Virus record (IMG/VR): IMGVR_UViG_3300029789_000001
Reading direction: 5' to 3' (one strand)
Origin: a virus
DNA: 64,000 nt
How positions within the stretch are numbered: the stretch's first letter is position 1; every line of letters starts with the position of its first letter. The notes beneath the pieces are model-generated. The model was not told the origin of the DNA and did not search any database. It saw only the letters and a program-made list of their open reading frames with translations. Positions 1 through 63,307 of this stretch are shown in pieces. Position numbers and translations under genes: made by a program.

Positions 1-1172
1 ATAGTTTCTATAACTATAGCTAAATCTTCATTACATTCTTCTGGAGCTAATAGTGGAATTTCAAAAGAGGCATTGTTATATTCGTCATATAGTTTAACTA
101 TATATCCTTTACACTTAGTATAATATGGAACATCAATAATAGTAGAAGTAAATTCTTCCACTATGTAATCCATAGAATTAGTTACTTCATAACCATCTTT
201 TTTGAAATTCTCATAAGCCATTAAAATTTCTCCTTTATGAAGAAAATTATTATCATTCCATAAAAGTTTATGAATAGCTTTATTATAGTTATTTACACGA
301 GCATTAGTATAAGCTAGAATTTTAGTATGTAATATATCCTTAGCTTCTATTTCGTGTTTAAATTCCGAAACTGCTTTTCTGCAAAAATTTTCTAATTTAG
401 ACTCTATAAAGAGACTTCCATCTTCACCTTCACAGTTGTCCCACTGTTGTATTGGAGACTCTCTAAGCGTCTGTAAAATGCCTTTAAGACCACTTTTTTC
501 AGATTGTCTGTATATTTTAGTCAATCTAAATTGATGTTTACATCTAAAAACTTTTGATTGTTCATCTTCTTTTACTGGATTTAACTGAGCATAATCATCA
601 CAAAAGATAATCATAGTACCCATTAAGCTACATTTTTCTACTAATAAATCATATAAATCACTACTTACCATAGATGCTTCATCGCAAATGACAATTCCAT
701 CATATGGTATAGACATTTTTTTATCATTAGTAGCAAAGAATCTTAATTCTCTGATATCCAGTTTAAGAATATCTACTTTAGGAGATAACGCTAACATACT
801 ATGAAGAGTAGTTGCATCATAATCATTATACTTTTTAAGTACTAAAGCTGCTTTATGAGTAGGAGCACATAATTTTACAGGGAATCCTTTAGTGTTTATC
901 CACTCTAAAAGGAAGCTAGTGCAAAGCGACTTGCCACAACCAGCAGCGCCTCCTAAATTGATAGGATTTAAAAAGTCTTTTTGTTTGAAATTATCTAATA
1001 TAATATCAATTATATCGTGCAATACTTGTAATTGCTCTTCTCCTAATGTTATCTGTTTCTCTTCTTCGATAAATCTTAACCAATTATTTCCTTTTACAAA
1101 AGGATTATCTATCATACTAGGTCTTTCTGGAGACCCATCGAAATTATCTATATAAATTAATTCATCACTCAT
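1..1172 (-). CDS. Dda-like superfamily-1 DNA helicase (RecD/Pif1/Dda family). The start codon is at 1172 and the C-terminus runs off the window start
   Basis: Manual minus-strand translation MSDELIYIDNF... contains Walker A GGAAGCGKS, motif Ia KLCAPTHKAA, motif II ICDEAS and motif III IIFCDDYAQLNPV. It is absent from the ORF track because it is incomplete. Confidence 0.75.
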   Translation of the reverse strand, partial: MSDELIYIDNFDGSPERPSMIDNPFVKGNNWLRFIEEEKQITLGEEQLQVLHDIIDIILDNFKQKDFLNPINLGGAAGCGKSLCTSFLLEWINTKGFPVKLCAPTHKAALVLKKYNDYDATTLHSMLALSPKVDILKLDIRELRFFATNDKKMSIPYDGIVICDEASMVSSDLYDLLVEKCSLMGTMIIFCDDYAQLNPVKEDEQSKVFRCKHQFRLTKIYRQSEKSGLKGILQTLRESPIQQWDNCEGEDGSLFIESKLENFCRKAVSEFKHEIEAKDILHTKILAYTNARVNNYNKAIHKLLWNDNNFLHKGEILMAYENFKKDGYEVTNSMDYIVEEFTSTIIDVPYYTKCKGYIVKLYDEYNNASFEIPLLAPEECNEDLAIVIET

Positions 1173-1581
1173 ATAAATATACTCTTTCTCCTTTAGGAGT
1201 AAGAAATCCTTCAGTAAAAGCGTTTATTTTTTCTTTATTACAATTCTCCCAAGTATTTTTATTTATAGCTTCTTTAAGAGATTTATTATAATAAATTATA
1301 TCTAAGATTGTCTCCCAATATACATCATTATTATCAGTTTGAAAAGTTAATAATAATTGATATTTCTTAAATAATTCTAAATTTATTTGAGGAACAAATT
1401 CAAAGTTAGGATTACCATATTTATCTTTCCAAGTAACGTCATAACTATGTAACTCAATCCATTTATTAGGAAGTCTACAAGGTAATCCTGATATTATGGG
1501 TCCAAAATAAATGGAAGGTTTAGGAATTCTAAACCATTTCCTAACCTTCCACCATGTTCTAAGAGGGTTCTCCATCAGCAC
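1165..1581 (-). CDS. hypothetical protein
   Basis: ORF track, 138 aa. Its start overlaps the upstream stop. No recognisable motif. Confidence 0.4.
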   Translation of the reverse strand: MLMENPLRTWWKVRKWFRIPKPSIYFGPIISGLPCRLPNKWIELHSYDVTWKDKYGNPNFEFVPQINLELFKKYQLLLTFQTDNNDVYWETILDIIYYNKSLKEAINKNTWENCNKEKINAFTEGFLTPKGERVYLYE

Positions 1582-1828
1582 GTCTTAAATAAGGTATTAA
1601 CTTTTCTTCTATTGTTCTATAAAAAGACGGACTAACATCATCATATACCAGAGTCCCATATAAAGCTTGAATAATTTCTTCTTTATTTAATTGCCACTCT
1701 TCCACATAAGATAAAGTGGACTTAATAGACATATCAGAATCAGTATGTAAGAATTTTATATAATCAAATATATCTTTAATACTTACATCTAATTCATCTG
1801 TTGTGAGATATTGATATGAAATTTTCAT
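1559..1828 (-). CDS. hypothetical protein
   Basis: ORF track, 89 aa, in an operon-like overlap chain. Confidence 0.35.
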   Translation of the reverse strand: MKISYQYLTTDELDVSIKDIFDYIKFLHTDSDMSIKSTLSYVEEWQLNKEEIIQALYGTLVYDDVSPSFYRTIEEKLIPYLRRADGEPS

Positions 1829-3118: not shown

Positions 3119-3293
3119 CTTCTATATTAATTTTACCTTCTTTAATCATAAATTCTATTTCATCTTCTCTGTAACCAAGAACATCACATAAATAAACTTC
3201 TACATCATTAATATCATCTGGAACTGTTACTAAGTCAACACTTCCTACACCGTAATTTAAAATTGCACACTCCATAAAACTAAAAAAGGAGGC

Positions 3294-3794
3294 TTATTCA
3301 GCCTCCTTCCAAAATATATCAGTACACCATATCATTATATGGTCATTTCTATCTATCTTATAAAAATTTTGATTAGTATGTGGATTATTTAATGGTCCGA
3401 ATTGTTTCATATAAGGACCAAGTTTAATATAATCAAAATTATCAATATCTATAACACTATCAGCTAGTAATTGTTTACCACTATACCATCCAATATGTAA
3501 TTCGGGATAATTTTCTCTAACCCATTTAGCTAATTTATTTATTTCTTTTGGATCAGAATCTCCTCCCATAAATCCTACTAATGTAATTCCTTTATTAGAT
3601 TCAATTAATTCTTGGAGTCGTTCCAATGATAGTACTTCTCCAATATCTTTTGACAAATAAGGTGAGTGGCAACCATCACAGAAACAAGGGCAACCACTGA
3701 TGTTAATACATAGAGAAACTTCATTAGGAAATTCTGCAAAAGTAACAGCTGTATCAACATATTTAAGCATAGAACTCTTTAATTTTATTCTCAA
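3294..3794 (-). CDS. nrdG: anaerobic ribonucleotide reductase activating protein (radical SAM)
   Basis: The motif ISGCPCFCDGCHSP matches the NrdG-type C-x3-C-x2-C cluster. It lies immediately downstream of nrdD and a thioredoxin gene. Confidence 0.8.
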   Translation of the reverse strand: MRIKLKSSMLKYVDTAVTFAEFPNEVSLCINISGCPCFCDGCHSPYLSKDIGEVLSLERLQELIESNKGITLVGFMGGDSDPKEINKLAKWVRENYPELHIGWYSGKQLLADSVIDIDNFDYIKLGPYMKQFGPLNNPHTNQNFYKIDRNDHIMIWCTDIFWKEAE

Positions 3795-4026
3795 GCATAT
3801 CAGCAGTTAAAACTCCAGAAGTTCTTCCTACCTCTATATTATCTTTTATAAATACAAGAGTTGGAAGATTTCTAATATTATATTTAAGAGTAGTTTCTTC
3901 CTCTGTCTCTATATCTACTGTAGTTAAAGTAATATCAGTATGATTTTCTAATACTCTTTTTAAAATAGGTGCTAAAACTTTACATTGTCCACACCACTCT
4001 GCTTCAAATTTTAATATTCTTTTCAT
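3763..4026 (-). CDS. thioredoxin-like protein
   Basis: WCGQC active-site motif, 87 aa, thioredoxin fold length. Confidence 0.75.
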   Translation of the reverse strand: MKRILKFEAEWCGQCKVLAPILKRVLENHTDITLTTVDIETEEETTLKYNIRNLPTLVFIKDNIEVGRTSGVLTADMLENKIKEFYA

Positions 4027-4514
4027 TGTGCTAATTCTATATTAATTTCTAATTCATTCTTTCTACTTCTAGTACTACCTTCTAGTTGTCTAGCAGCACT
4101 CCAGTTAGAAATCTTTGTAAGATAGCCGATAATGCGATCCCATAGACTTACATGAGTACTACCACATTTAGGACATTTACTAAACGGTTGTTTTGCTATA
4201 AAATGACACTCTTCACATTCACAATTAGGAATATTAAAAGTAGCATATTTACAACCTACTTTAGCCATAAATTTAAGTAAATACTCATATTGTTTCTGAC
4301 TCAAATGTTCAGATAAATTAAGATGACAAGCAGAACCCCCATCCAATTCATCAGCAGCGAATTCAGAACTATGAAGTATAATTTTATCAAGTATACTTAT
4401 ATGTGTATCATTAGGTTTAAATATATAACTAGCATACAGATTAGTATCTGTAGGAATCCAATAGCCATCAGCTTTATCTCTATTATAAAGTTTTACTGAA
4501 GCGCTTTCTGCCAT
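4023..4514 (-). CDS. nrdD: NrdD C-terminal segment (glycine-radical domain plus zinc ribbon). It is either exon 2 of an intron-split nrdD or a separately translated split-gene fragment.
   Basis: Motifs DGGSACHLNLSE, CECEECHF...CPKCGS and the glycine-radical motif RIIGYL. GAAGGAG sits 9 nt upstream of its ATG, which is a rare SD-like site in this window. Confidence 0.85.
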   Translation of the reverse strand: MAESASVKLYNRDKADGYWIPTDTNLYASYIFKPNDTHISILDKIILHSSEFAADELDGGSACHLNLSEHLSQKQYEYLLKFMAKVGCKYATFNIPNCECEECHFIAKQPFSKCPKCGSTHVSLWDRIIGYLTKISNWSAARQLEGSTRSRKNELEINIELAQ

Positions 4515-4518
4515 TCTG

Positions 4519-5475
4519 TTACGCTCCTTCTATAGAAGGAATTTCTAATATTTTATTTAATTCCTCTATTGGCGAAGGATGATTAATAATATAATATAAA
4601 TCTTTGTTAGGACCATATTCACCAAATAATTCTTGTTCTTTTTTTATTCTAGCTAATACAGCTTCAGCATAAGTAAAATAATTTCCAAGATGTATACTTT
4701 TATAATTATACATTATTCTAGCCGTCCATTTTTTATTTACTTTAAGCCAGTTTACTCCTTTAATTTTTTGATTTAATTTTGTTCCTCTGTTATTATAAGA
4801 ATTTTCTTTTTGAGTACAAACTCGAAGATTTGAAAGCCTATTATCTAAAGAATCCCCATTGATATGGTCTACTACTTCATCAATATTATATTTTTTATCG
4901 TGAAGATGCATTATATATCTATGTACAAAGTATTTTTTACCAGAACCTTCCTCATTTTCTATTCCTGAAAATGCTGCATATTCTTTAATACCACTTTTTC
5001 TTATATAGATTTTATGTTTTTTAATGTCAGGTAAAAATTCTAAATCAACTTTGGTGCTAGCTTTATAATTACCATTTTTATCAAAACATTTTATTTCTAC
5101 ATAATCTTCATGAATAACATATTCATTAGCGTCGTATATAGTTCTATCTCTAATAGCCCCATGTCTAGTTATTTGGATATAATGTTTACGACAATACGGG
5201 GTTCCCTCAAAAGAAGCCATTTTTAAATCTCCACAAATACTACATTTTTCTAAAGGCTTTTTATGTTTTCTTTTAGAAGTGTCGGTGATTTTACCATATT
5301 TATTTAATTGGTCATAGTGTTTTTCACAAACTATATAATCATTGAATCTTCTAAGTTTCCCTTCTTCTTTAGTACTTCCACATACTTCACAGGTACATTC
5401 ATCTGGTATTCTTTTTCTTACTCTTTTTTCTTTTACTAAATTTCTTACTTTTAAAATGTCTAATTTTTGTTCCAT
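4519..5475 (-). CDS. HNH homing endonuclease with an AP2 DNA-binding domain, inserted between the two nrdD segments
   Basis: HNH motif VDHINGDSLDNRLSNLRVCTQKENSYN. AP2-like motif GVNWLKVNKKWTARIMYNYKSIHLGNYFTYAEA. Cys4 zinc knuckles at the N-terminus. Confidence 0.85.
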   Translation of the reverse strand: MEQKLDILKVRNLVKEKRVRKRIPDECTCEVCGSTKEEGKLRRFNDYIVCEKHYDQLNKYGKITDTSKRKHKKPLEKCSICGDLKMASFEGTPYCRKHYIQITRHGAIRDRTIYDANEYVIHEDYVEIKCFDKNGNYKASTKVDLEFLPDIKKHKIYIRKSGIKEYAAFSGIENEEGSGKKYFVHRYIMHLHDKKYNIDEVVDHINGDSLDNRLSNLRVCTQKENSYNNRGTKLNQKIKGVNWLKVNKKWTARIMYNYKSIHLGNYFTYAEAVLARIKKEQELFGEYGPNKDLYYIINHPSPIEELNKILEIPSIEGA

Positions 5476-5733
5476 AAACTATAATTTTTATATTTACTGT
5501 TATAGAACAACTATAGACCCTCATCCTTGGGAATCAAAATTATTTTGTATATTATATTATTAACGGAGAAAATTCTTCGATTTTCTCTCTCTATGTTACC
5601 ATAGAGTTCGGACTATTGCATATTTTAAATAAATTTATTTAAAATTCTCTTTATTTAGTCTCTCAGGCTGCCCATAATTATAATAATTATTGCTTGCCCC
5701 TCGTTGTCCTTAATCTAAGGAGTTTCGAGTCAA

Positions 5734-8562
5734 TTAAAAGAGATTTATAGTGCCCACACGTCTAGGCACTTGTTCAGTATTAAATTGAGCTGTTTTAGTT
5801 TTATGTTTCTTATTCTGTTCTTTTATAGTACTGAATATCAATCTACAGAATGTCTTATAATAAATATTATTATTACATTCCATTCCTAAGTATTCAGCCG
5901 CCTGATTTAAACCATTAATTCCAATAGTTAAATATTGTTTATCAAGATTAATAAAACCAGCATCATAAGCAGCATATAAATGATGATCTTTGCACCAATG
6001 CATTAAGTCGTTATAAGCATACTGATATAAATAAACTCTTTCAAGAATATTTTCTATATATTTCTTAATTCCTTCTTGGAAGTCTTTATGTGTAATCCAA
6101 TCTACTGGGAAACAACATCTATTGGTGTTAACATCAATATGGTCTTTATAATCAGACCAAGTATGCTGCCAATCCTGAATAATTCTATTTAAATCAAGAG
6201 TGATAACATTCTTACTACCAGTCATTATACCTATTTGACCATTAGTAGTATTAAATGTATTTTCTTGTACCGCATTCTGTAAACGACAATTATGAGTAAT
6301 TAATCCACTTGGTAATGTAAAATATGGTTCAGAAGTATTTTTACATTCTATACAATATACTCTATCATTGTAATCATATGGTTCGATAGATTTTATTTTA
6401 AAGTATATTCCATTATTATATTTTATCCAACTATGTTCCTTGTCTTTATTAGCTCTATGATTTGCATCTTCATACCATCTTACACAATATAATGGGTAAT
6501 TTCTTTTATAATGTTCCTCGCGTATTATAACTTCTTCATCTGTTCTATTTGATATATTAATAATGCTTTGCATTCCTAAAGAAGTTATTAAGGCTTCCAT
6601 ATTTTCTGCTAATTCAGGAGAAGTCGTGTAGCATCTGTTAGAATTTCCCCCATCAGTATCATACCATCCTTGTAGTATACCTTCTCTAAATTTTACAGAT
6701 TGAAGAAGACAATTCATGTTTAATTTCTTATTATAAGCATAAGTTCCTCTATACCAATTAGTCCATTTTTGAATAAAAGCAACTAAATTTTTATTAGATA
6801 CTCTTAATGGATAAACATTATTTACTACTTCTTTTAAAACCACGTTAGGTTCATATCCCATTTGTTTTAATGCGAGATTCCAATAAAATTTAGAACGTTT
6901 ATATTTTTGTTCATTTTGGGATAAATTAATATCATAGATAACTCCATTTATTTCAGAACTAAAAGAGCCATCACCTAAAAATGATCCAATTACATAACCT
7001 TGGGCGTAAGTTAAATGTTCATTATTATCTGGAATAGCACTCAACTTAGAAGTATTGAATAATAAGTAATCATTAATAGTTAACTGTTCTGTTGGTTTTT
7101 CTCCTTGTAAAGTTACATTTATATGATTATCAGTCATAATAAACTCTTTATTATTATAAGTGGTAACTTTATACATAGGACGATTAGGTAAATCTATAAC
7201 TTTGCCAGCTACCCAAGAGCCATTGTGAAATACTTTAAAATTCTCTTTCATATTTTTATATGGAAGATTTTTAAATTCTTCAAAGGTAGTTAGATGTACT
7301 CCAGAAGTGCTAGATTTCCATAAAAACTTAGTATCTTTAGAAAAGCAACATGAACTTAAACTATCTACACTACGAGACAGATAAGTAAAGAAAGAATTTC
7401 CTTGAGCATATTCACTGCATATAAAATGGAAAGTATCTAAATCTTTAAAATTACCTTCCTTATCTGTTAAGCAAGCATAACTACATACAGGAAATGTTAA
7501 AATACATTTTAATCTTTCTTGATTTAACCAATGTAAATAACGTCTTTGTAACCAATTAGTAGAATTCCATTCTGGCTTTGTTCCATCTGGAAATACAAAT
7601 TCTCCAAACATACCTTCAAAGAAATATTTATCGAAGAATGAAAAATTTGTAAATGGGGACTGCATTCCTCTAGCTCCTGCTATTTGATTAATGGAATAAG
7701 TTACCTGTTGGAAATATTGATCAATTTGACTGCCAATAGTTTTCTGTTTTATACAATAATCTGTAGTTATTTTTACACTTGGTTTGAGATAATAATTATT
7801 TCCCCATTCTTTTCTACAGAAATAATCCATATACATCAGAAACTCAGGAGTAGCTACTGCTCCTTTAATTTCAGAGGCTAATGCAAAGTTTAGATTTACA
7901 TAAATACCACAAAATGAATCAAGGTTCTTTGGAACAGCTGATTTACCTCCTAATTTCTCTAATCCAAACAACAAGAAAGGATACATAGAAGCTGCCATAC
8001 AATATGGTTCTCCTACTTGAGAAGATGAGTCATGAGGATATAAAATAGTTTTAAAGTCATTCCTCATAACTTTTATATTAAAGTTAGGGTCTCTCTTCTT
8101 TACAAAACTTTCCCACCATTCTGTATTAGTAAGTTTATTATCGACTTTATGTATTTCAGCGTTTAATACTCCAATACCTTTAGTTCCTACATTACTATTA
8201 TCATCAATAGTAGCATTAGCAGTATTATCAGACTTTACAAAATTATGAATAAATTTAATATCCCTAGTAGTATGATTTCTAATATCTTCACGTTCTTTAC
8301 GATATAGAATATATTTTTTAGCCACATCGTGATATCCTAAATCCATTAAGAGTTCTTCAATTTGGTCTTGAATATCCTCAATAGATTGATCTTCAGTCTC
8401 TACTACAGAATTAGTTATCTCAGTAACTGCTCTGTAAATATCTTCGTCCATTGTTTTACTAGAATTTTGGGTAATTCCAAAAGCCTTTAGTACAGCATCT
8501 CTAATTTTGTTTCTGTTAAACTCTTCTTTAATTCCGTCTCTCTTTATTACCATAAATAACAT
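5734..8562 (-). CDS. nrdD: anaerobic ribonucleoside-triphosphate reductase, N-terminal and main part, carrying an in-frame LAGLIDADG intein
   Basis: ATP-cone at the N-terminus (VIKRDGIKEEFNRNKIRDAV). NrdD core motifs TGSKNVITLDLNRI and TIGINGLNQAAEYLG. It ends at ...QVPRRVGTINLF before the expected glycine-radical domain. Confidence 0.85.
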   Translation of the reverse strand: MLFMVIKRDGIKEEFNRNKIRDAVLKAFGITQNSSKTMDEDIYRAVTEITNSVVETEDQSIEDIQDQIEELLMDLGYHDVAKKYILYRKEREDIRNHTTRDIKFIHNFVKSDNTANATIDDNSNVGTKGIGVLNAEIHKVDNKLTNTEWWESFVKKRDPNFNIKVMRNDFKTILYPHDSSSQVGEPYCMAASMYPFLLFGLEKLGGKSAVPKNLDSFCGIYVNLNFALASEIKGAVATPEFLMYMDYFCRKEWGNNYYLKPSVKITTDYCIKQKTIGSQIDQYFQQVTYSINQIAGARGMQSPFTNFSFFDKYFFEGMFGEFVFPDGTKPEWNSTNWLQRRYLHWLNQERLKCILTFPVCSYACLTDKEGNFKDLDTFHFICSEYAQGNSFFTYLSRSVDSLSSCCFSKDTKFLWKSSTSGVHLTTFEEFKNLPYKNMKENFKVFHNGSWVAGKVIDLPNRPMYKVTTYNNKEFIMTDNHINVTLQGEKPTEQLTINDYLLFNTSKLSAIPDNNEHLTYAQGYVIGSFLGDGSFSSEINGVIYDINLSQNEQKYKRSKFYWNLALKQMGYEPNVVLKEVVNNVYPLRVSNKNLVAFIQKWTNWYRGTYAYNKKLNMNCLLQSVKFREGILQGWYDTDGGNSNRCYTTSPELAENMEALITSLGMQSIINISNRTDEEVIIREEHYKRNYPLYCVRWYEDANHRANKDKEHSWIKYNNGIYFKIKSIEPYDYNDRVYCIECKNTSEPYFTLPSGLITHNCRLQNAVQENTFNTTNGQIGIMTGSKNVITLDLNRIIQDWQHTWSDYKDHIDVNTNRCCFPVDWITHKDFQEGIKKYIENILERVYLYQYAYNDLMHWCKDHHLYAAYDAGFINLDKQYLTIGINGLNQAAEYLGMECNNNIYYKTFCRLIFSTIKEQNKKHKTKTAQFNTEQVPRRVGTINLF
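6289..8347 (-). mobile_element. intein (353 aa) with a LAGLIDADG homing-endonuclease domain, inside nrdD
   Basis: Block A: CFSKDTKFLW follows SLSSC. Two LAGLIDADG motifs: VIGSFLGDGSF and LQGWYDTDGGNS. C-terminal ITHN followed by the extein Cys. Excision regenerates SSC-CRLQ. Confidence 0.8.
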
Positions 8563-8659
8563 TTATAAATTAACATTTTAAATCATCTACGAAATAAGCA
8601 CTATAATACTAGTACTGAACTAATAATATAGTGCTTATATAGTTATTTCAAAATATTAT

Positions 8660-9454
8660 TTACAAAGTTAAAATGCTGTTTACTAGTAAAGTTTTCTCAA
8701 CCTGATTCATAATATCTTTTTTCATAGAATCAGTTATAATTTGAGTGAATGCATTATATACAGTAAACATATTTGCGTTATCATCTGATACAAGATATGG
8801 ACTATCTTTTTTATCAAATAATAATTTATAAGCATCAATAGGAGTTGATGTAGCTAATTTCACTTTACCAAAACCATTATCAACAGATTCAGACATACAG
8901 TTACGAATCCATCTACCCAAATGTTCATTTACAAAACTTTTATTGGTATAGTCAAAATCTGTATCTGCAAAGCGTCTGAGAGTAACTCCTATCTCTGTAG
9001 TTTGCTCTACAAGTCTTGTAATTGGTTTAAAGTTAATCGGAGTCTCTGGTTCTATCTCATTAACTACTAAACTGTCTGGATTAAACACACAAAGGTTAGT
9101 GCAAGCAGAATTTACGGCACCTGAGTACATTTTTACAACAGCTTTTCTAGTGTCTAGACCATATACCATACCAATTACCTGCTGATGATTAGCATATTGA
9201 TATTCATTTGGTAATACTGCTTCTAACCATACTCTATTAAAAGTTAAATCAGCAGTATCTATATCACCATTTTTATTATAAGTGATTTGATCAGGTAATT
9301 TTACATGTACTCTAATATCAGAAGTTAATTTTTGAACTCTTTCCAGAAAAGGCTCAATATATCCTCTAGTAGGAAGATAATCTTTACCTTTAATACTAGT
9401 AGCTTTTCCTTTTAATACTTCTTCTAAAGTAAATTCAGTTGGCATTCTCTCCAT
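8660..9454 (-). CDS. hypothetical protein
   Basis: ORF track, 264 aa. Confidence 0.4.
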   Translation of the reverse strand: MERMPTEFTLEEVLKGKATSIKGKDYLPTRGYIEPFLERVQKLTSDIRVHVKLPDQITYNKNGDIDTADLTFNRVWLEAVLPNEYQYANHQQVIGMVYGLDTRKAVVKMYSGAVNSACTNLCVFNPDSLVVNEIEPETPINFKPITRLVEQTTEIGVTLRRFADTDFDYTNKSFVNEHLGRWIRNCMSESVDNGFGKVKLATSTPIDAYKLLFDKKDSPYLVSDDNANMFTVYNAFTQIITDSMKKDIMNQVEKTLLVNSILTL

Positions 9455-11279: not shown

Positions 11280-12377
11280 CTACGATGCTACAGACTCTTT
11301 AGTTTCTGTAGTTATCTCGGTATTAGCATCACAGCCTTCACCGATATTGGTTTGTTTTAACATATTTGATTTCTCAAATATACGGCAAAAATAAATAAAT
11401 TTTTCATATTTTCTATTTAAATAAATTGAGCAATTATCATATAATTTATGTAATACATACATAGCTTTTCTACTAGAAGCCTGTATATACATAGTAATTT
11501 CTTTTTTATTATTATGATTATGAAATAAAGTTTCTTCTATATTTAAATAACTCATAATAACCTTTAAAAACTCTTTAGTTCCAAGTATTTGATATACTGG
11601 AATAGTATGTTCTTTATTAGCATAGCTAATACACCCATCACCATCAAAATAACCTCTAATAAAATGTCTTATTAAGTCCCTAGATTTAAAGATACTTTCA
11701 TCAGGAAATTTTAATGTTAAACTCTTTCTAGGAGTACATCCTAAAGAATTTAGTTGTTTCCATAAGATTTCACTGGATAAACATACTCTACATCTAGTAT
11801 GTCCATATTTATCAGCTTTAGTAACATGTAATTCTTTATTGTACCCAATAGCTTTTGCAAATTTTTCCATATGTTCTTTATCATCCCCTTTAGTACATAG
11901 TTCAAAGTTCCAATCTATCCTTTCTTTGGATGTATCTAGAGGGGAACTATAAATATAACCATCAGCAAATATAAAACCTAACCAATAAGCTTTTTCTTCA
12001 GTATCTATATTGTCAAAAAAATGTTCATTGTAAGATTTTTCTTTCTTTCCCTTTTTATTAGGATTATAAAGATTTAAAGTTACTAAATGAGTTTTTAAAG
12101 TTTGTGCTCCAATATTATATTTTATAGCGGAAGCACGTAATCCTGTATCAGAATTAATATAATCTTTTATAGCTAAATTTAAATTCTTAATAGTTATACC
12201 CGTTAAATATACACTATAAGAATAGTTATTATCTTTTAATAATTGCTCTAAATAATCTCGGCTAACTTTATTAGCTTTACAAAAAGCAGTTAGCTTTAAT
12301 TCCGAATTTAAAAAATTATTTAATATTTCTATGAGAGTATTATAACTCTTCCACGGAAATATAATAATTAAAATATG
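11280..12377 (-). CDS. LAGLIDADG homing endonuclease (two-motif, ~360 aa). The open frame has no ATG at its 5' end.
   Basis: Manual translation of the frame upstream of the tracked ORF is continuous from 12377. Motifs AYWLGFIFADGYIY and IRGYFDGDGCISY. The first in-frame ATG is at 11870, in the middle of the protein. It ends at TAG, followed 10 codons later by TAA. Confidence 0.75.
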   Translation of the reverse strand, partial: HILIIIFPWKSYNTLIEILNNFLNSELKLTAFCKANKVSRDYLEQLLKDNNYSYSVYLTGITIKNLNLAIKDYINSDTGLRASAIKYNIGAQTLKTHLVTLNLYNPNKKGKKEKSYNEHFFDNIDTEEKAYWLGFIFADGYIYSSPLDTSKERIDWNFELCTKGDDKEHMEKFAKAIGYNKELHVTKADKYGHTRCRVCLSSEILWKQLNSLGCTPRKSLTLKFPDESIFKSRDLIRHFIRGYFDGDGCISYANKEHTIPVYQILGTKEFLKVIMSYLNIEETLFHNHNNKKEITMYIQASSRKAMYVLHKLYDNCSIYLNRKYEKFIYFCRIFEKSNMLKQTNIGEGCDANTEITTETKESVAS

Positions 12378-12387
12378 TTAAAATTTA

Positions 12388-13626
12388 TTACAAAACTCTA
12401 CCGTGAGCATATAGGAATTGATGATCTCCAATGATGAAATTATCAATAGGATAGTTACTAATATAACTCTTAACATTATATTTAGTTAAATATGCAGCTA
12501 AAAGTTTCTGATTTAACCATTCAAAATCACCACCATGATTAGATTCTCCTATAGAGAGATAATTAAAATCTTTACTTTTTACTTTTACTGTAAGAGTAGC
12601 AAAGAACTCCATCATACACTCTATAAATGCTTCACTAATTTCTTTATTATCAAGAATCTCAGGAAGCTCATGACCCCCTCTAGTAGTTTCTTTATTGAAC
12701 CCATCAATAGAATCTCCAAGATTAACTACATATACAGAATGATATTCTTGTTCCACAAAAGATTCCACAATTCTAGATAATCTAGATTTAATTTCTGGAA
12801 CATCATAAGAAGGTAACTGTACAAAACTACTATATTTAGCATTATAAGCTCCGATATGTAAATCAGATAACCATATAATTAAATCAGGATATTTTGCTTC
12901 TTTATTATTAATATTTACTGGAAGCTCTTTATAATCCTTTACTGTATTTTTAATAGTATCTTCTATAAGTTCCTTATTTAAAGACTTAGAGGTTTCCTTA
13001 GTTAACTTAGTAACTAAAGCTCTTAAATCCTTTACTTCATCTTTCTCTATTCTTTTTAAGAAATCATTCTCTTTTTCTCTAAGATGCATTTCTTTTAATT
13101 CATCCTCAGTATATTCTTCATACATATGAGGAGCAAATGGAGAGGATGCTTTAGTAATATTAAAAGCTCGTAAAATTCTTTTAAAGTCAATAAGAGAATA
13201 GTCTGGGAAATATCTGCTGACAATCTGCTGGGTTAAACCAGAACCGTAATAAGTATACATTCTATATACACTATTCATTTCGTTTCTAGTAAAGACTCCT
13301 GTGATTGCGGGCTTATTTCTTCTGAAAATCTCAAACTTATATCCAGTAATTTTACCAGTATCCTCGTCTCTTATTTCCCAAGTATTAGAAGCATCATCTG
13401 TATCTTTCTTTACTTCTTTTTTCTTAGTATTCTTTAGTTTATCATATAATTCCAATATCTTCTTATCATCTTCATCTTTATTTTCTTTCTTTTTAAGATT
13501 TCTCATTGTCATATATACAGTATTTATATTTTTTCCTGATATAGTACACTGAGCTTTTAAAGAACGATTATTATTAATTGCATCATTAAAGAACTTAATA
13601 TAAGAAGATTTTGTTGCTTGTTTCAT
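12388..13626 (-). CDS. calcineurin-like metallophosphoesterase of the SbcD/Mre11 nuclease family, with a 240-aa N-terminal extension. It ends right after motif IV.
   Basis: Motif I IIWLSDLHIG, motif II VVNLGDSIDG, motif III SIGESNHG, motif IV IIGDHQ. Double TAA TAA stop. Motif V is absent from this ORF. Confidence 0.65.
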   Translation of the reverse strand: MKQATKSSYIKFFNDAINNNRSLKAQCTISGKNINTVYMTMRNLKKKENKDEDDKKILELYDKLKNTKKKEVKKDTDDASNTWEIRDEDTGKITGYKFEIFRRNKPAITGVFTRNEMNSVYRMYTYYGSGLTQQIVSRYFPDYSLIDFKRILRAFNITKASSPFAPHMYEEYTEDELKEMHLREKENDFLKRIEKDEVKDLRALVTKLTKETSKSLNKELIEDTIKNTVKDYKELPVNINNKEAKYPDLIIWLSDLHIGAYNAKYSSFVQLPSYDVPEIKSRLSRIVESFVEQEYHSVYVVNLGDSIDGFNKETTRGGHELPEILDNKEISEAFIECMMEFFATLTVKVKSKDFNYLSIGESNHGGDFEWLNQKLLAAYLTKYNVKSYISNYPIDNFIIGDHQFLYAHGRVL

Positions 13627-33665: not shown

Positions 33666-33889
33666 AATGCTGATAATTTATTTATATAAATATCTAAATA
33701 TTTCTTTCCAAGTTTCTGCATTATACTATAGAAACTTCTTCTAAAACTATTATCTTTCATACACAATATCTTTATATTAGAAATTAAATCTTCTGGTATA
33801 TGTGCTTCAGAATATTCTTTAGATACTATTTCAGAAGATTTAATTAATTCTACTAATAAAGATACTTGATTAGCTTTTTGATAATTCAT
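33662..33889 (-). CDS. hypothetical protein
   Basis: ORF track, 75 aa. Confidence 0.3.
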   Translation of the reverse strand: MNYQKANQVSLLVELIKSSEIVSKEYSEAHIPEDLISNIKILCMKDNSFRRSFYSIMQKLGKKYLDIYINKLSAL

Positions 33890-34107
33890 AAGTGAGAATC
33901 CCTAATTGCTGTATAATATCCTAGAATAAAAAAGTCTTTACACTTTCCTAACTCTCTATTAAACATTAATAGATATATAGGAGACTCTGCAATTAATGTT
34001 TTCCAAGCTTTATTTACTTTTATTTCAAGAGTATCTGAATTCATAGTCCTTCTTTTTCTAAAGAATTCCAATAGTCTGCTTCTAGATCATTCCAATAATC
34101 ATCTAGG

Positions 34108-34332
34108 TCATCTATAATGTCTGTTAGATCTTCCATCAGGTATACAATATAAAATTAGCAATATAATACAGAGTATAATTATAAGTCCTATTCCTATTAA
34201 GAATGGGCTAAAAACAACTAACCATGAAATATCTGAATGTAGAATAACTTTAGCAACTAATAAAATAATAAAAGTTACTGGAATAACCCATCCTCCACAT
34301 CCTAAATTTACATTTACTTTTTCATTTGACAT
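34108..34332 (-). CDS. small two-TM membrane protein
   Basis: 74 aa, two long hydrophobic helices. Confidence 0.35.
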   Translation of the reverse strand: MSNEKVNVNLGCGGWVIPVTFIILLVAKVILHSDISWLVVFSPFLIGIGLIIILCIILLILYCIPDGRSNRHYR

Positions 34333-34873
34333 TGTCTAATAGAGATTTTATATAATCAATAGATTCCTTCACAGAAAGATAGTCACCACTCTTTAACATT
34401 ACATAAGAGCTTTCTCCAGCTTCTTCTACTACGGAAATATCATCTACGGCTATTAAATATCTTCTATTAATACTATTGCTGTCTAATGTTAAATCAATAA
34501 ACACATTTAATCATATTAATAATTTTCTACTAATAATCATCTGCGTTATGATAAGTAAGATAATATAATACTATAAAGATTTAATCCTAGTACAGATTGT
34601 TTCTACAGCATTATTAAATTCTTGCTTATTACTATCTAAAATAGTTTCTCTTAAAAACCCTAAATATGAAGTACTACGACTAGTAATAGAAGGTAATCTA
34701 AGATTTACTACAATACATTTATTACCATCTACTCTAATTCGTAATGCTCCACACTTTTTATACTTAACCATTTAAATTAATAAATATTAGTAATGCTAAT
34801 ACAAAAATAGGGACTAATAAGATAAACTTACTAGTCCCTTTCTCCTTGCCATCAAAGGCTTCTACAATTTCTT

Positions 34874-35699: not shown

Positions 35700-36101
35700 T
35701 TAGTTATGGCATATGTTACCACTCACAGTACTAATATTTCCACCAACATTACCACAAGTAACATCGCCACTCATTGTTAATACTCCACCTTTAACGTCTT
35801 TACAGGATACATCACCACTAGTTGTATTAACAGTTGAAACATCCCCTGTAATTAAGACATCCCCACTACCAGTATGTACACTAGCTACATTACCTTCTAT
35901 TTTCACTTCTATAGATGGACTTTTAAGATCTTCTCTTAATTTTCCATTTACATAAATTTTACCATTATTAATACTAATGGTTTGTGCTCCTTCTATTTTA
36001 ACATTGTTAATCCAAGTAGTACCATTAATATCATTTAATGTTGTTTCAATTGTATTAATTATTTCCATAATATATAAAATTTTTAAAATGTATACAAACA
36101 A
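35700..36101 (-). CDS. beta-helix-like repeat protein with SGDV repeats (bactofilin-like?)
   Basis: The repeats ...SGDVLITGDVSTVNTTSGDVSCKDVKGGVLTMSGDVTCGNVGGN. An alternative start is MEIINT at 36068. Confidence 0.4.
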   Translation of the reverse strand: MFVYILKILYIMEIINTIETTLNDINGTTWINNVKIEGAQTISINNGKIYVNGKLREDLKSPSIEVKIEGNVASVHTGSGDVLITGDVSTVNTTSGDVSCKDVKGGVLTMSGDVTCGNVGGNISTVSGNICHN

Positions 36102-36105
36102 AAAA

Positions 36106-36157
36106 AGTCGAGCTTATTGCCCGACTCAACATCAGTAAGTACCCCTTTGGTACTTAC
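36106..36157 (-). terminator. pair of hairpins (AGTCG...CGACT, then a 9-bp GTAAGTACC/GGTACTTAC stem) with a T-run on the minus strand
   Basis: Read directly. The minus strand shows the hairpin followed by TTTTTTTG. Confidence 0.45.
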
Positions 36158-36524
36158 AAATTAAATAATAAGATTAAATAATTGGAGGCATGTATAATCT
36201 ACAATACTGATTAGCATACCAAGTCCAACCCTTCTTAAATGCTTTTAAAGTTCTTTTTAAAATTTTCATCATAATAAATCAAATTTAAAGTTTAACTTAT
36301 AAAATATCTAGGAGGAGAGTTTAAAAAATTAAGAATCCCAGGTAAATCACCCCTGTTAGAGACATGGTCTCTATTTTTATTATTTAGGATTCTATAGGAA
36401 TGCAAAAAACCATCGAACCATTCCAGTTCGTAGGTTCTACGACACCTAATAGGCGAGTATGCATCGTTGAGAGGCACCCTATAAGTTACGTTGCTCCTGT
36501 AACTAGTATTCTAGAGCTTTGTTA

Positions 36525-37240
36525 TTATCGTTTTCTTTTATCAATTCTAGTACAATTTTTATTTCTAGAGCCAAAATTTTCCGTTAAGGCATGACAATTA
36601 GGGCATAGTAACTAAAGATTTTCTTCTTTATTATTTAAACAATCTCCATCAATATGATGGATTTGTAATGGTACTAAACCTGTGAAATAATTTACCTAAT
36701 TCCACCCACATTTTTGGCAAGAATTATTAAATTTTTCTTTTAAATATACTTTTACTGCTGTAGCTATTTTATCTTTTCCAATAATACCCGATTCCTTACC
36801 TGCTTTCCATCTTTTAATATATTCCTTTCTTTCATATTCTGCTTTACACGTATTATTACAATATTTATTTCCTTTAGTAATTTCTTTTCCACAGTTCAAA
36901 CAGAGTGAATAAGTAGGTAAAGATGGTTTATTTCGTACTACTCCAATATTATTATAACTAGCTGCACAAGAATGATTACAGAAATCATTAACTCGTTTTC
37001 ATAAGGAATTATTTTTCCACAGTATTTACATACTTTAGGATTTTTATCATAAGATTCCTTAGAATATCTAATCTTAAAATGTTCCGTACTTAAATTATTT
37101 GATTTAATAAAATCTCTTATTTTATTTATATTGTAAGTATTATTAGTACATAATAACTACTTACAAACCTAATTTAAATTTTCGCTATTTGATATAGCTA
37201 ATCTAATTTCTTCACTGGTGCATTCTTTGAATTTCTTCAT
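36525..37240 (-). pseudogene. HNH endonuclease gene with zinc-ribbon repeats, disrupted by one frameshift and 4 in-frame TAG codons
   Basis: Segments MKKFKECTSEEIRLAISNSENLN(TAG)VCK(TAG)LLCTNN...CKYCGKIIPYENE, then a frame shift, then FCNHSCAASYNN...CLNCGKEITKGNKYCNNTC...SCQKCGWN(TAG)VNYFTGLVPLQIHHIDGDCLNNKEENL(TAG)LLCPNCHALTENFG...(TAA). Confidence 0.6.
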
Positions 37241-37275
37241 ATTGTACTATTTTTTAATTACTGTTTAAAATTTAC

Positions 37276-37305
37276 ATAAAAAGCGGGAGAACAGTAAAAC
37301 TCCCG
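37276..37305 (-). terminator. rho-independent terminator (CGGGAG/CTCCCG stem followed by a U-run on the minus strand)
   Basis: Read directly, downstream of 37360..37698. Confidence 0.55.
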
Positions 37306-37359
37306 TAGTCAGGTAATTACTCTGATTTAGCTTTTTATGTTATATGAAATATCATTATA

Positions 37360-62227: not shown

Positions 62228-63265
62228 TTTTTTATGTGTTAAATTTAATTATATGATATAATTATTTTATTTTCATTCTTTACATATGAGATATGAAATA
62301 GATCTAATGATTTAGCAAATTTATCTGCCAAGTCATTATTATGAAATATTATTTCAATTCCACATTCTGATATAAAGCAGCTTTGAATATTATTATCTGC
62401 TTTTCCTTTTTCGATTATTGCTTTCATATTTAATGTTATTATTGTTCATTACCGATAATAGTTATGGATTTAATATCTTTATATTCAAGAATAATATTAT
62501 TCATGTATTCATTACTAAATACTATTCTATCAAGATACTCATATTTATTCATTCCATAAGCATTAGTTATAACACCACCATTAGTAATAATAACTCCATG
62601 TACTTTCTCAATATTTGTACATAAGATATTTACTAATTCATTTAATACATTTCTATCCATAATTTTAATGTTAAAGAGTTAATAATCTAATTTAAATTAA
62701 GCACTTTAGTTTTAAGACCTATAAACCACGTTGAGGTATGCTTTACGATATAGGATTTCGTCTAAAGTAAACTTTAGACAGGGATTTCAACCTTTGGGTA
62801 AAAACCTTTTGTTTTTGTTTGTGTTTTGTTTTGTTTTATTATTTTTGATTAAACATCTTACAAAGAATAAAAATATTATTGTATAAAATTCTTATAAATT
62901 GTTTGATGTTATGAGGATTTTTGGAGTGATATATAAGTTGGTTTTAGTGAGAGAGATTGGGAAATTGAGGAAAGGTTTGGTTTGTGGATTGGGGTTAGTG
63001 TGCACACAAACTCATGCCAATCCATATAAACAACTAACCTTCCTTATCCAATCCCAACTTATCCCCCACCAATTCCAACTATCTCTCCAAACAGCATACT
63101 TGACCACGATAACTTTACCATTCTCAATCAACAACATGAAAATTCCAACAATTTGTGTCGGAAGTTGAACATTGTAGAACTCTAAAGTTTCGAGGTCAAC
63201 AAGCTTATTTTTTCCATAAACTCCCTTAATAGTTTTGTACATACAAAAAATACAAAGAATTTATA

Positions 63266-63299
63266 AAAAAAATTTTAAAGGAGAGAGATTACTCTCTCC
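63266..63299 (-). terminator. rho-independent terminator (GGAGAGAG/CTCTCTCC stem followed by a U-run on the minus strand)
   Basis: Read directly, immediately downstream of 63308..63721. Confidence 0.6.
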
Positions 63300-63307
63300 C
63301 CTTTTCT

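Follow-up and report, generated by a model that had tools for sequence, protein, structure and literature searches.

Introns and inteins in phage RNR genes have been known for decades. The nrdD (sunY) gene of T4 contains an intron encoding I-TevII, and the bnrdE gene of Bacillus phage SPbeta combines an intron and an intein in a single RNR gene ("lightning strikes twice"). A precedent for a different kind of arrangement is nrdA of Aeromonas phage Aeh1, an RNR gene whose two pieces flank a homing endonuclease gene. Friedrich et al. reportedly described in 2007 how mobE splits this nrdA into "genes in pieces" whose fragments assemble non-covalently, each being translated on its own; no ribozyme is known to lie between them. 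The Aeh1 nrdA split is also listed in PMC3653736.

We analyzed a 64,000-nt stretch of viral DNA (IMG/VR record IMGVR_UViG_3300029789_000001, hereafter the window), in which nrdD appears as three ORFs, all on the minus strand and at the positions originally predicted (ORF list and Pfam): a 942-aa ORF (5734..8562) with ATP-cone, NRDD, Intein_splicing and LAGLIDADG_3 matches, a 318-aa HNH_3 ORF (4519..5475), and a 163-aa ORF (4023..4514) that corresponds to positions 415-560 of the 562 in Pfam NRDD and, as predicted, separately holds the C-terminal part of NrdD. Directly downstream of nrdD, on the same strand (3294..4026), a thioredoxin gene (3763..4026; Pfam Thioredoxin, 69.7 bits) and an nrdG-like activase gene (3294..3794; Pfam Fer4_12, 27 bits) are found. 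This region very probably represents one nrdD gene with two independent, site-specific selfish elements, a group I intron plus an intein, from which a normal 742-aa class III RNR is made; the correct gene model would then be a single 742-aa NrdD and not three ORFs.

The limits of the intron follow from a comparison of alleles. It comprises 1252 nt (4512..5763, minus strand) inserted in phase 0, begins with AGACGUGU and ends in ...GUAACAGAAUG, with its terminal G at 4512. Precisely these 1252 nt are missing in MT835492.1, a 98.7%-identical phage, which reads GAACAAGTACCC|GCAGAAAGC where the window has GAACAAGTGCCT[1252 nt]GCAGAAAGC. The same stretch is missing in 13 IMG/VR alleles, and these 14 intron-less alleles (13 at an amino-acid identity of at least 96%, one at 91%) have an unbroken ...NTEQVP|AESASV...; six further alleles carry the intron at a site identical to that of the window, bringing the intron-bearing alleles to seven. 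Excision of 4512..5763 keeps the reading frame and gives the sequence of the intron-less alleles, including the conserved EQVPAE motif. The original prediction had left the choice between an intron and a gene split. For the intron it had named exactly this extent, a ccU following QVP as the close of the 5' exon, the G of AUG as the last intron base and a mature ...TEQVP-AESASV junction, and the intron-less alleles and the Rfam model bear out each of these points. At the sequence level, the group I intron is thus the supported alternative.

A covariance-model search matched the Rfam family RF00028 over its full model (1-253) at 5589..5773 on the minus strand (54.1 bits, E = 3.3e-13; gathering score 50 bits). 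We regard this score as modestly above the threshold, since Rfam scans of 4.8 kb or 64 kb did not detect the intron because of their speed filters and it was found only in a 361-nt slice. Genuine group I introns can therefore escape Rfam scans run with default settings on long, AT-rich sequences of phages. The catalytic core occupies 5589..5755 (minus strand), as delineated by the cmscan alignment, covariation and the fold of an ORF-less form, and consists of the guide GGGCACU (5755..5749), P3 (5743..5737 with 5652..5646), P4 and P5 (within 5729..5700), P6 (5699..5666), the two strands of P7 (5662..5653 and 5617..5610), P8 (5645..5622) and P9 with a GUAA loop (5606..5589). P1 is formed by the last seven nucleotides of exon 1, AGUGCCU (5770..5764), paired to the guide, the splice site being marked by a U.G wobble (U5764.G). 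As a point against the ribozyme, P10 comprises at most 3 bp, as judged by eye.

The pairing of exon and guide is reflected in the variation among alleles. Exon 1 ends in GTGCCT in all seven intron-bearing alleles and in none of the 14 intron-less ones, and exon positions -4 and -1 are the sole flanking SNPs linked to the presence of the intron. Where diverged phages carry the intron at this site, their guide tracks the exon, as seen in the exon/guide pairs GUCCCU/GGGGAC, ACACCGU/GCGGUGU, ACACCAU/GUGGUGU and AUCCCU/GGGGAU. RNAalifold analysis of 17 diverged family members revealed double compensatory changes in 18 of 24 core pairs (P3, P5, P6 and P8); P4 is invariant across the family alignment, and P7 is uninformative for covariation because the search pattern fixed its strands. 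When a natural form of 305 nt was folded without constraints, P1, P3-P6, P8, P9 and peripheral helices were recovered (z = -6.9).

The ORF of the intron encodes an HNH homing endonuclease of the I-HmuI-like type, as indicated by Pfam HNH_3 (38.5 bits against a cutoff of 24.8, residues 183-226) and PHROG 99 (E = 1.7e-35). The only solved structure matching it is PDB 1U3E (E = 2.4e-4, residues 134-240 including the HNH motif), that of I-HmuI, an HNH enzyme encoded by the intron in the DNA polymerase gene of SPO1. Both proteins come from phage group I introns and the match is distant; the protein of the window differs by two additional Cys-rich repeats at its N-terminus and by a possible AP2-like module at its C-terminus. 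Of the original label "HNH-AP2", the first half holds, but the second is at best tentative, Pfam AP2 matching residues 237-275 with only 14.5 bits (E = 0.044) where its cutoff is 33.3.

A 16-bp peripheral helix located 3' of the catalytic core carries the endonuclease gene in its loop. In the fold of the ORF-less form, a peripheral hairpin (5587..5566) is followed by the 5' arm of this helix, UUAAUAAUAUAAUAUA (5563..5548), while its 3' arm (4598..4583) belongs to the 3' domain of the intron (4512..4598), which is kept in all short forms, is paired in the MFE fold and overlaps with the last ~29 HNH codons. It ends with the conserved tail GUAACAGAAUG (4522..4512), which reads GUAACAGAAUUG in diverged family members. 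Natural forms that lack the endonuclease gene (305, 306 and 356 nt) retain intron nucleotides 1-218 and the last 88 nt, and full, ORF-less and empty intron-site alleles exist side by side in near-identical phages. It had been considered awkward for an intron that the HNH ORF ends only 7 nt before the downstream ATG. This needs a small correction, as the 7 nt behind the HNH stop codon already contain the terminal AUG (CAGAAUG). The objection fails because the whole core (P1-P9) is located 5' of the ORF, because a peripheral helix accommodates the ORF in its loop, and because the nrdD intron of T4 is laid out in the same way: its I-TevII ORF begins after 235 nt of intron and stops 21 nt short of the final intron base, compared to 288 nt and 7 nt in the window.

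Alternatively, the HNH gene might have split nrdD, with the 163-aa Zn-ribbon/glycyl-radical fragment being translated from its own AUG and assembling non-covalently with the N-terminal fragment, but we consider this extremely improbable. The in-frame AUG (4514..4512) is indeed preceded at N9 by GAAGGAG (4530..4524), and an SD-like core is found upstream of only 5 of the 73 ORFs that reach 100 aa or more, so that the reported rarity of such sites holds at gene starts. However, GAAGGAG occurs 16 times on the minus strand, and with so few ORFs preceded by an SD-like core the phage is evidently independent of these sites. PHROG 29160, a family consisting only of the C-terminal NrdD piece, would also agree with a split, but it may just gather unrecognized exon 2 sequences. 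A split lacks support here because the GAAGGAG is an arm of the terminal composite stem in the MFE fold and because the in-frame AUG is specific to a clade: the 3' end of the intron family is ...AAUUG, which a single nucleotide difference turns into AUG only in the clade of the window, and in hosts of the TP(C)ES type the terminal triplet of the intron is out of frame. An RNR gene split as in Aeh1 would have no ribozyme between its pieces and a conserved downstream start, whereas the nrdD fragments of the window are separated by a complete, covarying group I ribozyme whose splice sites are exact. Moreover, forms free of the endonuclease retain the ribozyme at the identical site, the exon sequence is constrained to pairing with the guide, and the break falls within the conserved EQVPAE motif. 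To some extent the C-terminal piece may still be translated separately from unspliced RNA. GrcA/YfiD acts as a spare part for pyruvate formate-lyase, and by analogy the 3' end of the intron could conceivably serve a dual use, unspliced RNA translated from the in-frame AUG also yielding the free 163-aa module, a "spare part" with which NrdD damaged by oxygen might be restored, although we would give this idea hardly any credence.

The second element in the interrupted nrdD is an intein of 353 aa that includes a LAGLIDADG endonuclease domain (6289..7347, minus strand). Its ends were predicted correctly, from CFSKDTKFLW to ITHN|C, corresponding to residues 406-758 of the 942-aa ORF, and the Cys of CRLQN follows as the +1 residue. 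The splice residues are canonical (C406, H757-N758 and C+1), and a block-B-like TDNH can be read from the sequence. Pfam LAGLIDADG_3 matches with 29.2 bits (cutoff 22.5), Intein_splicing remains just under its cutoff (33.8 against 35.8 bits), and PHROG 25611 is matched with E = 3e-70. As for the intron, empty alleles define the insertion: exactly 1059 nt are missing in sister alleles of ~98-99% identity (L004-7, L009-11, L029 and L031-33), which read ...TCA TGT|TGT CGT TTA at this site. The intein thereby separates the two Cys of SCCR, the counterpart of MGCR in T4, whose Cys290 corresponds to the second of them; the mutants C329A and C330A lack activity (PMC4493059).

With both elements removed, NrdD passes the NCBIfam equivalog model TIGR02827 (600.5 bits, cutoff 568.3) and aligns with the NrdD of T. 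maritima (4COI; E = 1.5e-53, residues 99-725) without gaps at both junctions, the motifs DRIIGY, CECEEC...CPKCG and SCCR being matched to the same motifs of that enzyme. The N-extein part of exon 1 (7348..8562, minus strand as all parts of the gene) encodes mature residues 1-405, i.e., the ATP-cone and the first barrel half (Pfam), ending in ...SVDSLSSC. Its C-extein part (5764..6288) encodes residues 406-580, from CRLQN to ...FNTEQVP, and exon 2 (4023..4511) encodes residues 581-742 (AESASV..., assigned by Pfam NRDD and the T. maritima alignment), in which CECEEC...CPKCG represents the Zn-ribbon and DRIIGY the glycyl-radical motif.

From these comparisons we infer that splicing and homing take place in the phage. 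At the RNA level, the intron would fold with the exon sequence GUGCCU paired to the internal guide GGGCAC, cleavage would occur after the wobble U, and exon 1 would be joined to exon 2 past the terminal G of the intron, restoring the conserved ...NTEQVP-AESASV... motif. At the protein level, the intein (Cys1 ... His-Asn, Cys+1) would be excised and ...SLSSC joined to CRLQN, by which SCCR is regenerated. If both elements remove themselves in this way, a normal 742-aa NrdD would be made. Each element has its own homing endonuclease, the HNH enzyme in the intron and the LAGLIDADG domain in the intein, and in a co-infection both presumably nick or cleave alleles that are still empty, into which repair would then copy the element.

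Could the gene instead be a decaying one, in which the intron or the intein has lost its competence for splicing and nrdD is kept merely as a carrier of selfish elements? Dwivedi et al. propose pseudogene status for some nrdA genes of Campylobacter phages (PMC3653736), but for the nrdD of the window we consider it highly improbable. The reading frame is uninterrupted in the two exons and the two exteins, the protein is 96-100% identical to uninterrupted alleles, and besides passing the equivalog model, the mature NrdD has an intact catalytic Cys, Zn-ribbon and RIIGY motif. All seven intron copies have preserved their core helices, U.G pair and terminal G, the intein blocks Cys1, TDNH and HN-Cys+1 are intact as well, and the nrdG and thioredoxin genes are still present downstream.

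Near-identical IMG/VR phages exhibit nrdD in almost all of its possible states, i.e., empty, with the intein only, with the full intron, or with an intron free of the endonuclease gene, and they also carry nrdD introns at two other sites. In this set of alleles, nature offers a snapshot of the cycle in which homing elements are gained, degenerate and are lost, and of how a guide follows its exon. It leaves the current understanding unchanged and adds a further example to a known kind of arrangement.

Compared with the described systems, the nrdD of T4 shares the host gene. However, the T4 intron site, AYE|YEVN, corresponds approximately to mature residue 287 here, whereas the intron of the window is located at residue 580 (EQVP|AE); the T4 endonuclease is of the GIY-YIG family instead of HNH, and T4 NrdD has no intein. 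SPbeta bnrdE shares the combination of both elements, but it is a class Ib nrdE and not a class III nrdD, and its elements and their sites are unrelated. An intein homologous over its full length (47-48% identity; c-st, 48%) is present in Clostridium phages c-st and D-1873, in a protein annotated as anaerobic RNR large subunit, and has previously been listed as putative (PMC3653736). The nrdD of the gut megaphage Lak-B1 shares with the window the position of its intein, an intron core that is 83% identical, and a break after RIIG, but its copy of the core is inserted ~12-17 codons downstream and accompanied by a small HNH ORF of 95 aa. In Jug gut phages, nrdD is fragmented in 95 of 104 genomes and the splicing of its introns is confirmed by RNA reads (PMC12880540); the Lak and Jug genomes are 3-5 times larger than that of the phage studied here. 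The same pair of elements at the same two sites is found in nrdD of Desulfovibrio phage 7757 (OR395405 / PV062637), a phage that infects a very different group of bacteria and has DNA of higher G+C content; the deposited record leaves the arrangement unannotated. Its intein is 41% identical to that of the window and occupies the same ...SC|C...THN|CRL site. At the same ...VP|GES site, in an insert of ~920 nt, its group I core, which with 26.3 bits stays below the Rfam threshold, has an identical P1 (GUGCCU/GGGCAC) and a P9 differing in one loop base, and its homologous HNH protein shows 39% identity. The co-occurrence of this intein and intron in such different phages points to a wide horizontal spread of the pair.

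The nrdD locus lies on the minus strand, and its ORFs and Pfam matches agree with the layout given in the original prediction. A 942-aa ORF (5734..8562, -) with matches to ATP-cone, NRDD (in two stretches), Intein_splicing and LAGLIDADG_3 is followed by a 318-aa ORF (4519..5475, -; HNH_3) and a 163-aa ORF (4023..4514, -) covering positions 415-560 of the 562 of Pfam NRDD, i.e., its last quarter. An 87-aa thioredoxin ORF (3763..4026, -; Pfam Thioredoxin) shares 4 nt with the end of nrdD and sits between it and an ORF of 166 aa for an nrdG-like radical-SAM activase (3294..3794, -; Fer4_12). Judged from sequence, the thioredoxin neighbour and the SCCR motif in NrdD would fit a class III reductase that depends on thioredoxin, the type for which Neisseria bacilliformis is cited in PMC4493059.

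A deposited relative defines the interruption between the two NrdD parts to the base. MT835492.1, from an uncultured phage of human faeces, matched in two pieces with 98.7% identity (megablast against deposited phages). Its junction reads GAACAAGTACCC/GCAGAAAGC, where the window has GAACAAGTGCCT and GCAGAAAGC separated by 1252 nt, and its ORF runs unbroken across the site (...NTEQVPAESASVKLY...). Because MT835492.1 lacks exactly those 1252 nt, the intron extends over 4512..5763, in phase 0 and with the G of AUG as its last base, the very extent proposed for a group I intron in the first of two models put forward earlier. The predicted spliced junction (5764/4511, -) joins ...GAACAAGUGCCU to GCAGAAAGC. 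The 258-nt ORF-free part, for which a fold search had been suggested as a check, contains strings typical of group I R and S elements, and a 361-nt slice matched the full group I intron model of Rfam, RF00028, at 5589..5773 (54.1 bits, gathering score 50, E = 3e-13). In this alignment the exon sequence AGUGCCU (5770..5764) pairs with GGGCACU of the intron (5755..5749) to form P1, and U5764, where the 5' splice site had been placed, forms its U.G wobble. The intron lacks P2 and P7.1/P7.2, and peripheral helices run out from P9. No intron match came from Rfam scans of 3900..8700 (4.8 kb; E <= 10) or of the entire window (gathering threshold); these negative long scans are filter artefacts and not evidence of absence.

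With intron and intein taken out, the mature NrdD of 742 aa aligns gap-free to T. maritima NrdD over both junctions (E = 1.5e-53), with SLSSC/CRL opposite AVASCCRL at the intein and FNTEQVP/AESASV opposite FNIEQVPAEKAAV at the intron, and it scores above the cutoff of the NCBIfam equivalog TIGR02827 (600.5 vs 568.3 bits). That the interrupted gene is non-functional seems to us very improbable. The intein comprises 353 aa (7347..6289, -). It begins with Cys1 and ends in HN, next to Cys+1 of the C-extein; in between lie a TDNH block and the two LAGLIDADG motifs GSFLGDGSF and GWYDTDGGN. It is inserted between both Cys of SCCR: intein-less alleles read ...TCA TGT/TGT CGT TTA... and intein-bearing ones ...TCA TGT/TGC TTT TCT..., the difference being exactly 1059 nt. 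The motif 328-SCCR-331 of T. maritima corresponds to 288-MGCR-291 of T4, and the variants C329A and C330A are inactive (PMC4493059). Equivalences within NrdD were based on this published correspondence and on HMM alignment to T. maritima NrdD, while a MAFFT alignment to T4 NrdD was set aside, its C-terminus being unreliable and T4 C290 falling one column off at the CC pair. Since the site splits SCCR, equated with MGCR, the +1 nucleophile of the intein is the counterpart of T4 Cys290, the finger-loop radical cysteine. PHROG 25611 (E = 3e-70) already includes NrdD sequences with the window's intein insert.

Short natural forms of the intron retain its nt 1-218 and its final 88 nt, the deletion lying between the complementary arms UUAAUAAUAUAAUAUA (5563..5548) and UAUAUUAUAUUAUUAA (4598..4583). 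The unconstrained fold of the natural 305-nt form (L031, 4160..4464; z = -6.9; 0 of 100 shuffles as stable) contains P1 with the exon, P3, P4, P5, P6, P8 and a P9 capped by a GUAA loop, as well as an extra hairpin, a 15-16-bp helix joining the two arms and a terminal composite stem. The short forms and this fold therefore place the entire catalytic core 5' of the HNH ORF, and the HNH gene fills the loop of a peripheral helix, its last ~29 codons overlapping the 3' domain of the intron. The objection once raised against an intron, that the ORF ends too near the 3' splice site, fails since the core precedes the ORF. The encoded protein had been described as an HNH-AP2 endonuclease; its HNH part is supported (HNH_3, 38.5 bits, cutoff 24.8), while AP2 found no confirmation (Pfam 14.5 bits vs cutoff 33.3). 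It matches PHROG 99 (E = 2e-35), I-HmuI (1U3E, E = 2.4e-4) is the one relative with a solved structure, and NCBIfam has no model for it.

The second model, in which the HNH gene has split nrdD and the 163-aa fragment is a separate protein, draws on the SD-like GAAGGAG (4530..4524) near its start. However, an SD-like core precedes just 5 of the 73 window ORFs of at least 100 aa, and as the phage evidently starts translation without such sites, a lone match weighs little. The GAAGG of this motif is moreover paired in the terminal stem, and the whole motif doubles as code for the C-terminal end of the HNH protein. The AUG itself is a 1-nt difference between the intron end of diverged members (...GUAACAGAAUUG/) and that of the window's clade (...GUAACAGAAUG/), and copies of the L063-65 type have a terminal triplet that is not in frame with exon 2. 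Forms of 325-556 nt, too short for such an endonuclease gene, retain the tail including its UAA. The 3' tail is part of the ribozyme, and we give a split gene hardly any chance against the intron.

Searching IMG/VR with the C-terminal NrdD part yielded 39 loci, on each of which mature NrdD, intein and HNH protein were mapped. Alleles with at least 96% amino-acid identity cover nearly every state: besides the window, with intein and full intron, there are uninterrupted genes (L004-7, L009-11), the intein alone (L008, L012), the intein with a short intron at the window's intron site (L016), short introns of 305-356 nt at that site (L031-33) and the full 1252-nt intron with an HNH gene 98-99% identical (L029, L038). 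Exon 1 ends in GTGCCT in 7/7 intron-bearing alleles and in 0/14 empty ones, which have GTACCC (9), GTGCCA (3), also GTACCA, GTTCCC or GTTCCT. Within the 300 nt of flanking exon compared, perfect linkage to intron presence is seen for two polymorphisms alone, at -4 and -1; both are synonymous, and P1 needs them for its G-C and U.G pairs.

A second intron site, used in several alleles, follows RIIG of the glycyl-radical motif. The element there is a different group I intron, inside the Tyr codon following the glycyl-radical Gly (RIIG/Y; RF00028 40.6 bits, E = 4e-9), carried by MT835492.1 (L001, about 6187..6500), L014, L015, L029, L031-33, L037 and L038 and absent from the window. Some copies, including that of MT835492.1, are ORF-free (about 294-315 nt); others measure about 1 kb and encode a different HNH protein, 29-30% identical to the window's. 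In L038, a near-identical allele, a further insert, its third, of about 745 nt (about 3255..4001) lies near mature residues 596/598, roughly where the Lak phage has its intron; the core of this insert is distantly related to the window intron (nhmmer E = 1e-6). Across near-identical nrdD alleles, introns occupy at least three sites and the intein one.

Two pattern scans of IMG/VR added further core copies, several at the same site in nrdD genes about 50-70% identical in protein and others in other sequence contexts; one match (L066) was discarded as it lacked the intron core. Wherever exon 2 could be identified, it begins exactly at AES... or GES...; the search for it in L055 was negative. Among diverged same-site copies the guide, which pairs with the end of exon 1, varies in step with the exon: GUGCCU/GGGCAC in the window and L061, GUCCCU/GGGGAC in L052, L058 and L059, AUCCCU/GGGGAU in L055, ACACCGU/GCGGUGU in L063 and L065, and ACACCAU/GUGGUGU in L064. 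RNAalifold recovered P3, P4, P5, P6 and P8 from a 17-sequence alignment, 18 of its 24 pairs staying paired despite changes on both sides. An exon-tracking guide with compensated helices is what would be expected of a ribozyme selected to splice.

The same-site introns of L063, L064, L065 and L067 interrupt nrdD genes of the TP type, where P1 pairing would move the splice site downstream by one base (...ACA CCG U/). Given an intron end of ...AAUUG/, splicing would restore UGC or UGU as the codon, and the protein would read ...NTEFTP-C-ES. In exon 2 of L052 (about 12007..12447) and L058 (about 1147..1587), tblastn revealed an in-frame stop where relatives have Trp (NYQ-stop-D and NYN-stop-D vs NYNWD), which suggests that these phages read a stop codon as an amino acid.

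When the family alignment, the second-site intron, the third insert of L038 and a Lak insert served as profiles for searching the window, the known intron alone was found. A second R-like string (53789..53779), in a 1.5-kb stretch without long ORF, gave no intron, its weak matches being tRNA-like and sRNA-like. The minus strand carries 70 of the 73 ORFs of at least 100 aa, and has many stretches of 0.5-1.5 kb without an ORF of at least 80 aa (e.g., 63307..62228, 37359..36069 and 34873..33666); long Rfam scans having lost the nrdD intron to their filters, these stretches may hold introns of other families. ARAGORN identified twelve tRNA genes, to which Rfam adds two (56265..56334 and 56957..57037). 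One of the ARAGORN genes, within the tRNA cluster at 53.3-57.1 kb (56442..56526, -; Rfam tRNA 53.2 bits), has the anticodon UUA and would read the stop codon UAA; the ORFs inspected read normally in the standard code.

In T4 the endonuclease gene of the nrdD intron is similarly placed, I-TevII beginning 235 nt into the 1033-nt intron and ending 21 nt before its last base, but the enzyme is of the GIY-YIG and not the HNH type and the site differs (AYE/YEVN, about residue 287 in window NrdD). This layout was taken from the T4 annotation, with the splice site inferred by choosing among four frame-compatible positions the one with P1 pairing (AUGAGU/GCUCAU); the difference in site is unaffected by the choice, since all four lie within residues 171-181. 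The best homologue of the HNH protein among deposited phages (39% identity) is from Desulfovibrio phage 7757, whose nrdD has a homologous intein at the same site and an insert of ~920 nt at ...FNSEVVP/GES, with P1 as in the window (GUGCCU/GGGCAC) and P9 differing in one loop base (RF00028 26.3 bits, E = 7e-5). With both sites filled, the intein and intron pair is thus present, unannotated, in a cultured phage. Blastn of the intron core against deposited phages matched Lak megaphages alone, the Desulfovibrio phage copy surfacing via proteins. In Lak nrdD the core, 83% identical, lies a few codons further downstream, the intein site is that of the window, and there are more interruptions. In Prevotella phage Lak-B1 (L003, MK250020.1, 156977-165098, reverse complement) we observed a smaller intein at SC/C, an insert with a 155-aa ORF after ...FNFTNGNLG, a group I core (RF00028 49.6 bits) a few codons downstream of PAE, a 95-aa HNH ORF and a break after RIIG. 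The NrdD intein of Clostridium phages c-st and D-1873, 47-48% identical to the window's over its full length, has already been noted in a 2013 survey, in which nrdD is the most commonly split RNR gene (PMC3653736), and in gut Jug phages nrdD is fragmented in 95 of 104 genomes, with RNA reads supporting splicing (PMC12880540). Intron and intein in one phage RNR gene were known earlier from SPbeta bnrdE. The nrdD of the window is a precisely delimited case of a kind already known; it adds chiefly an unusually complete set of allelic states, and also a methodological warning that Rfam scans are limited by their filters.
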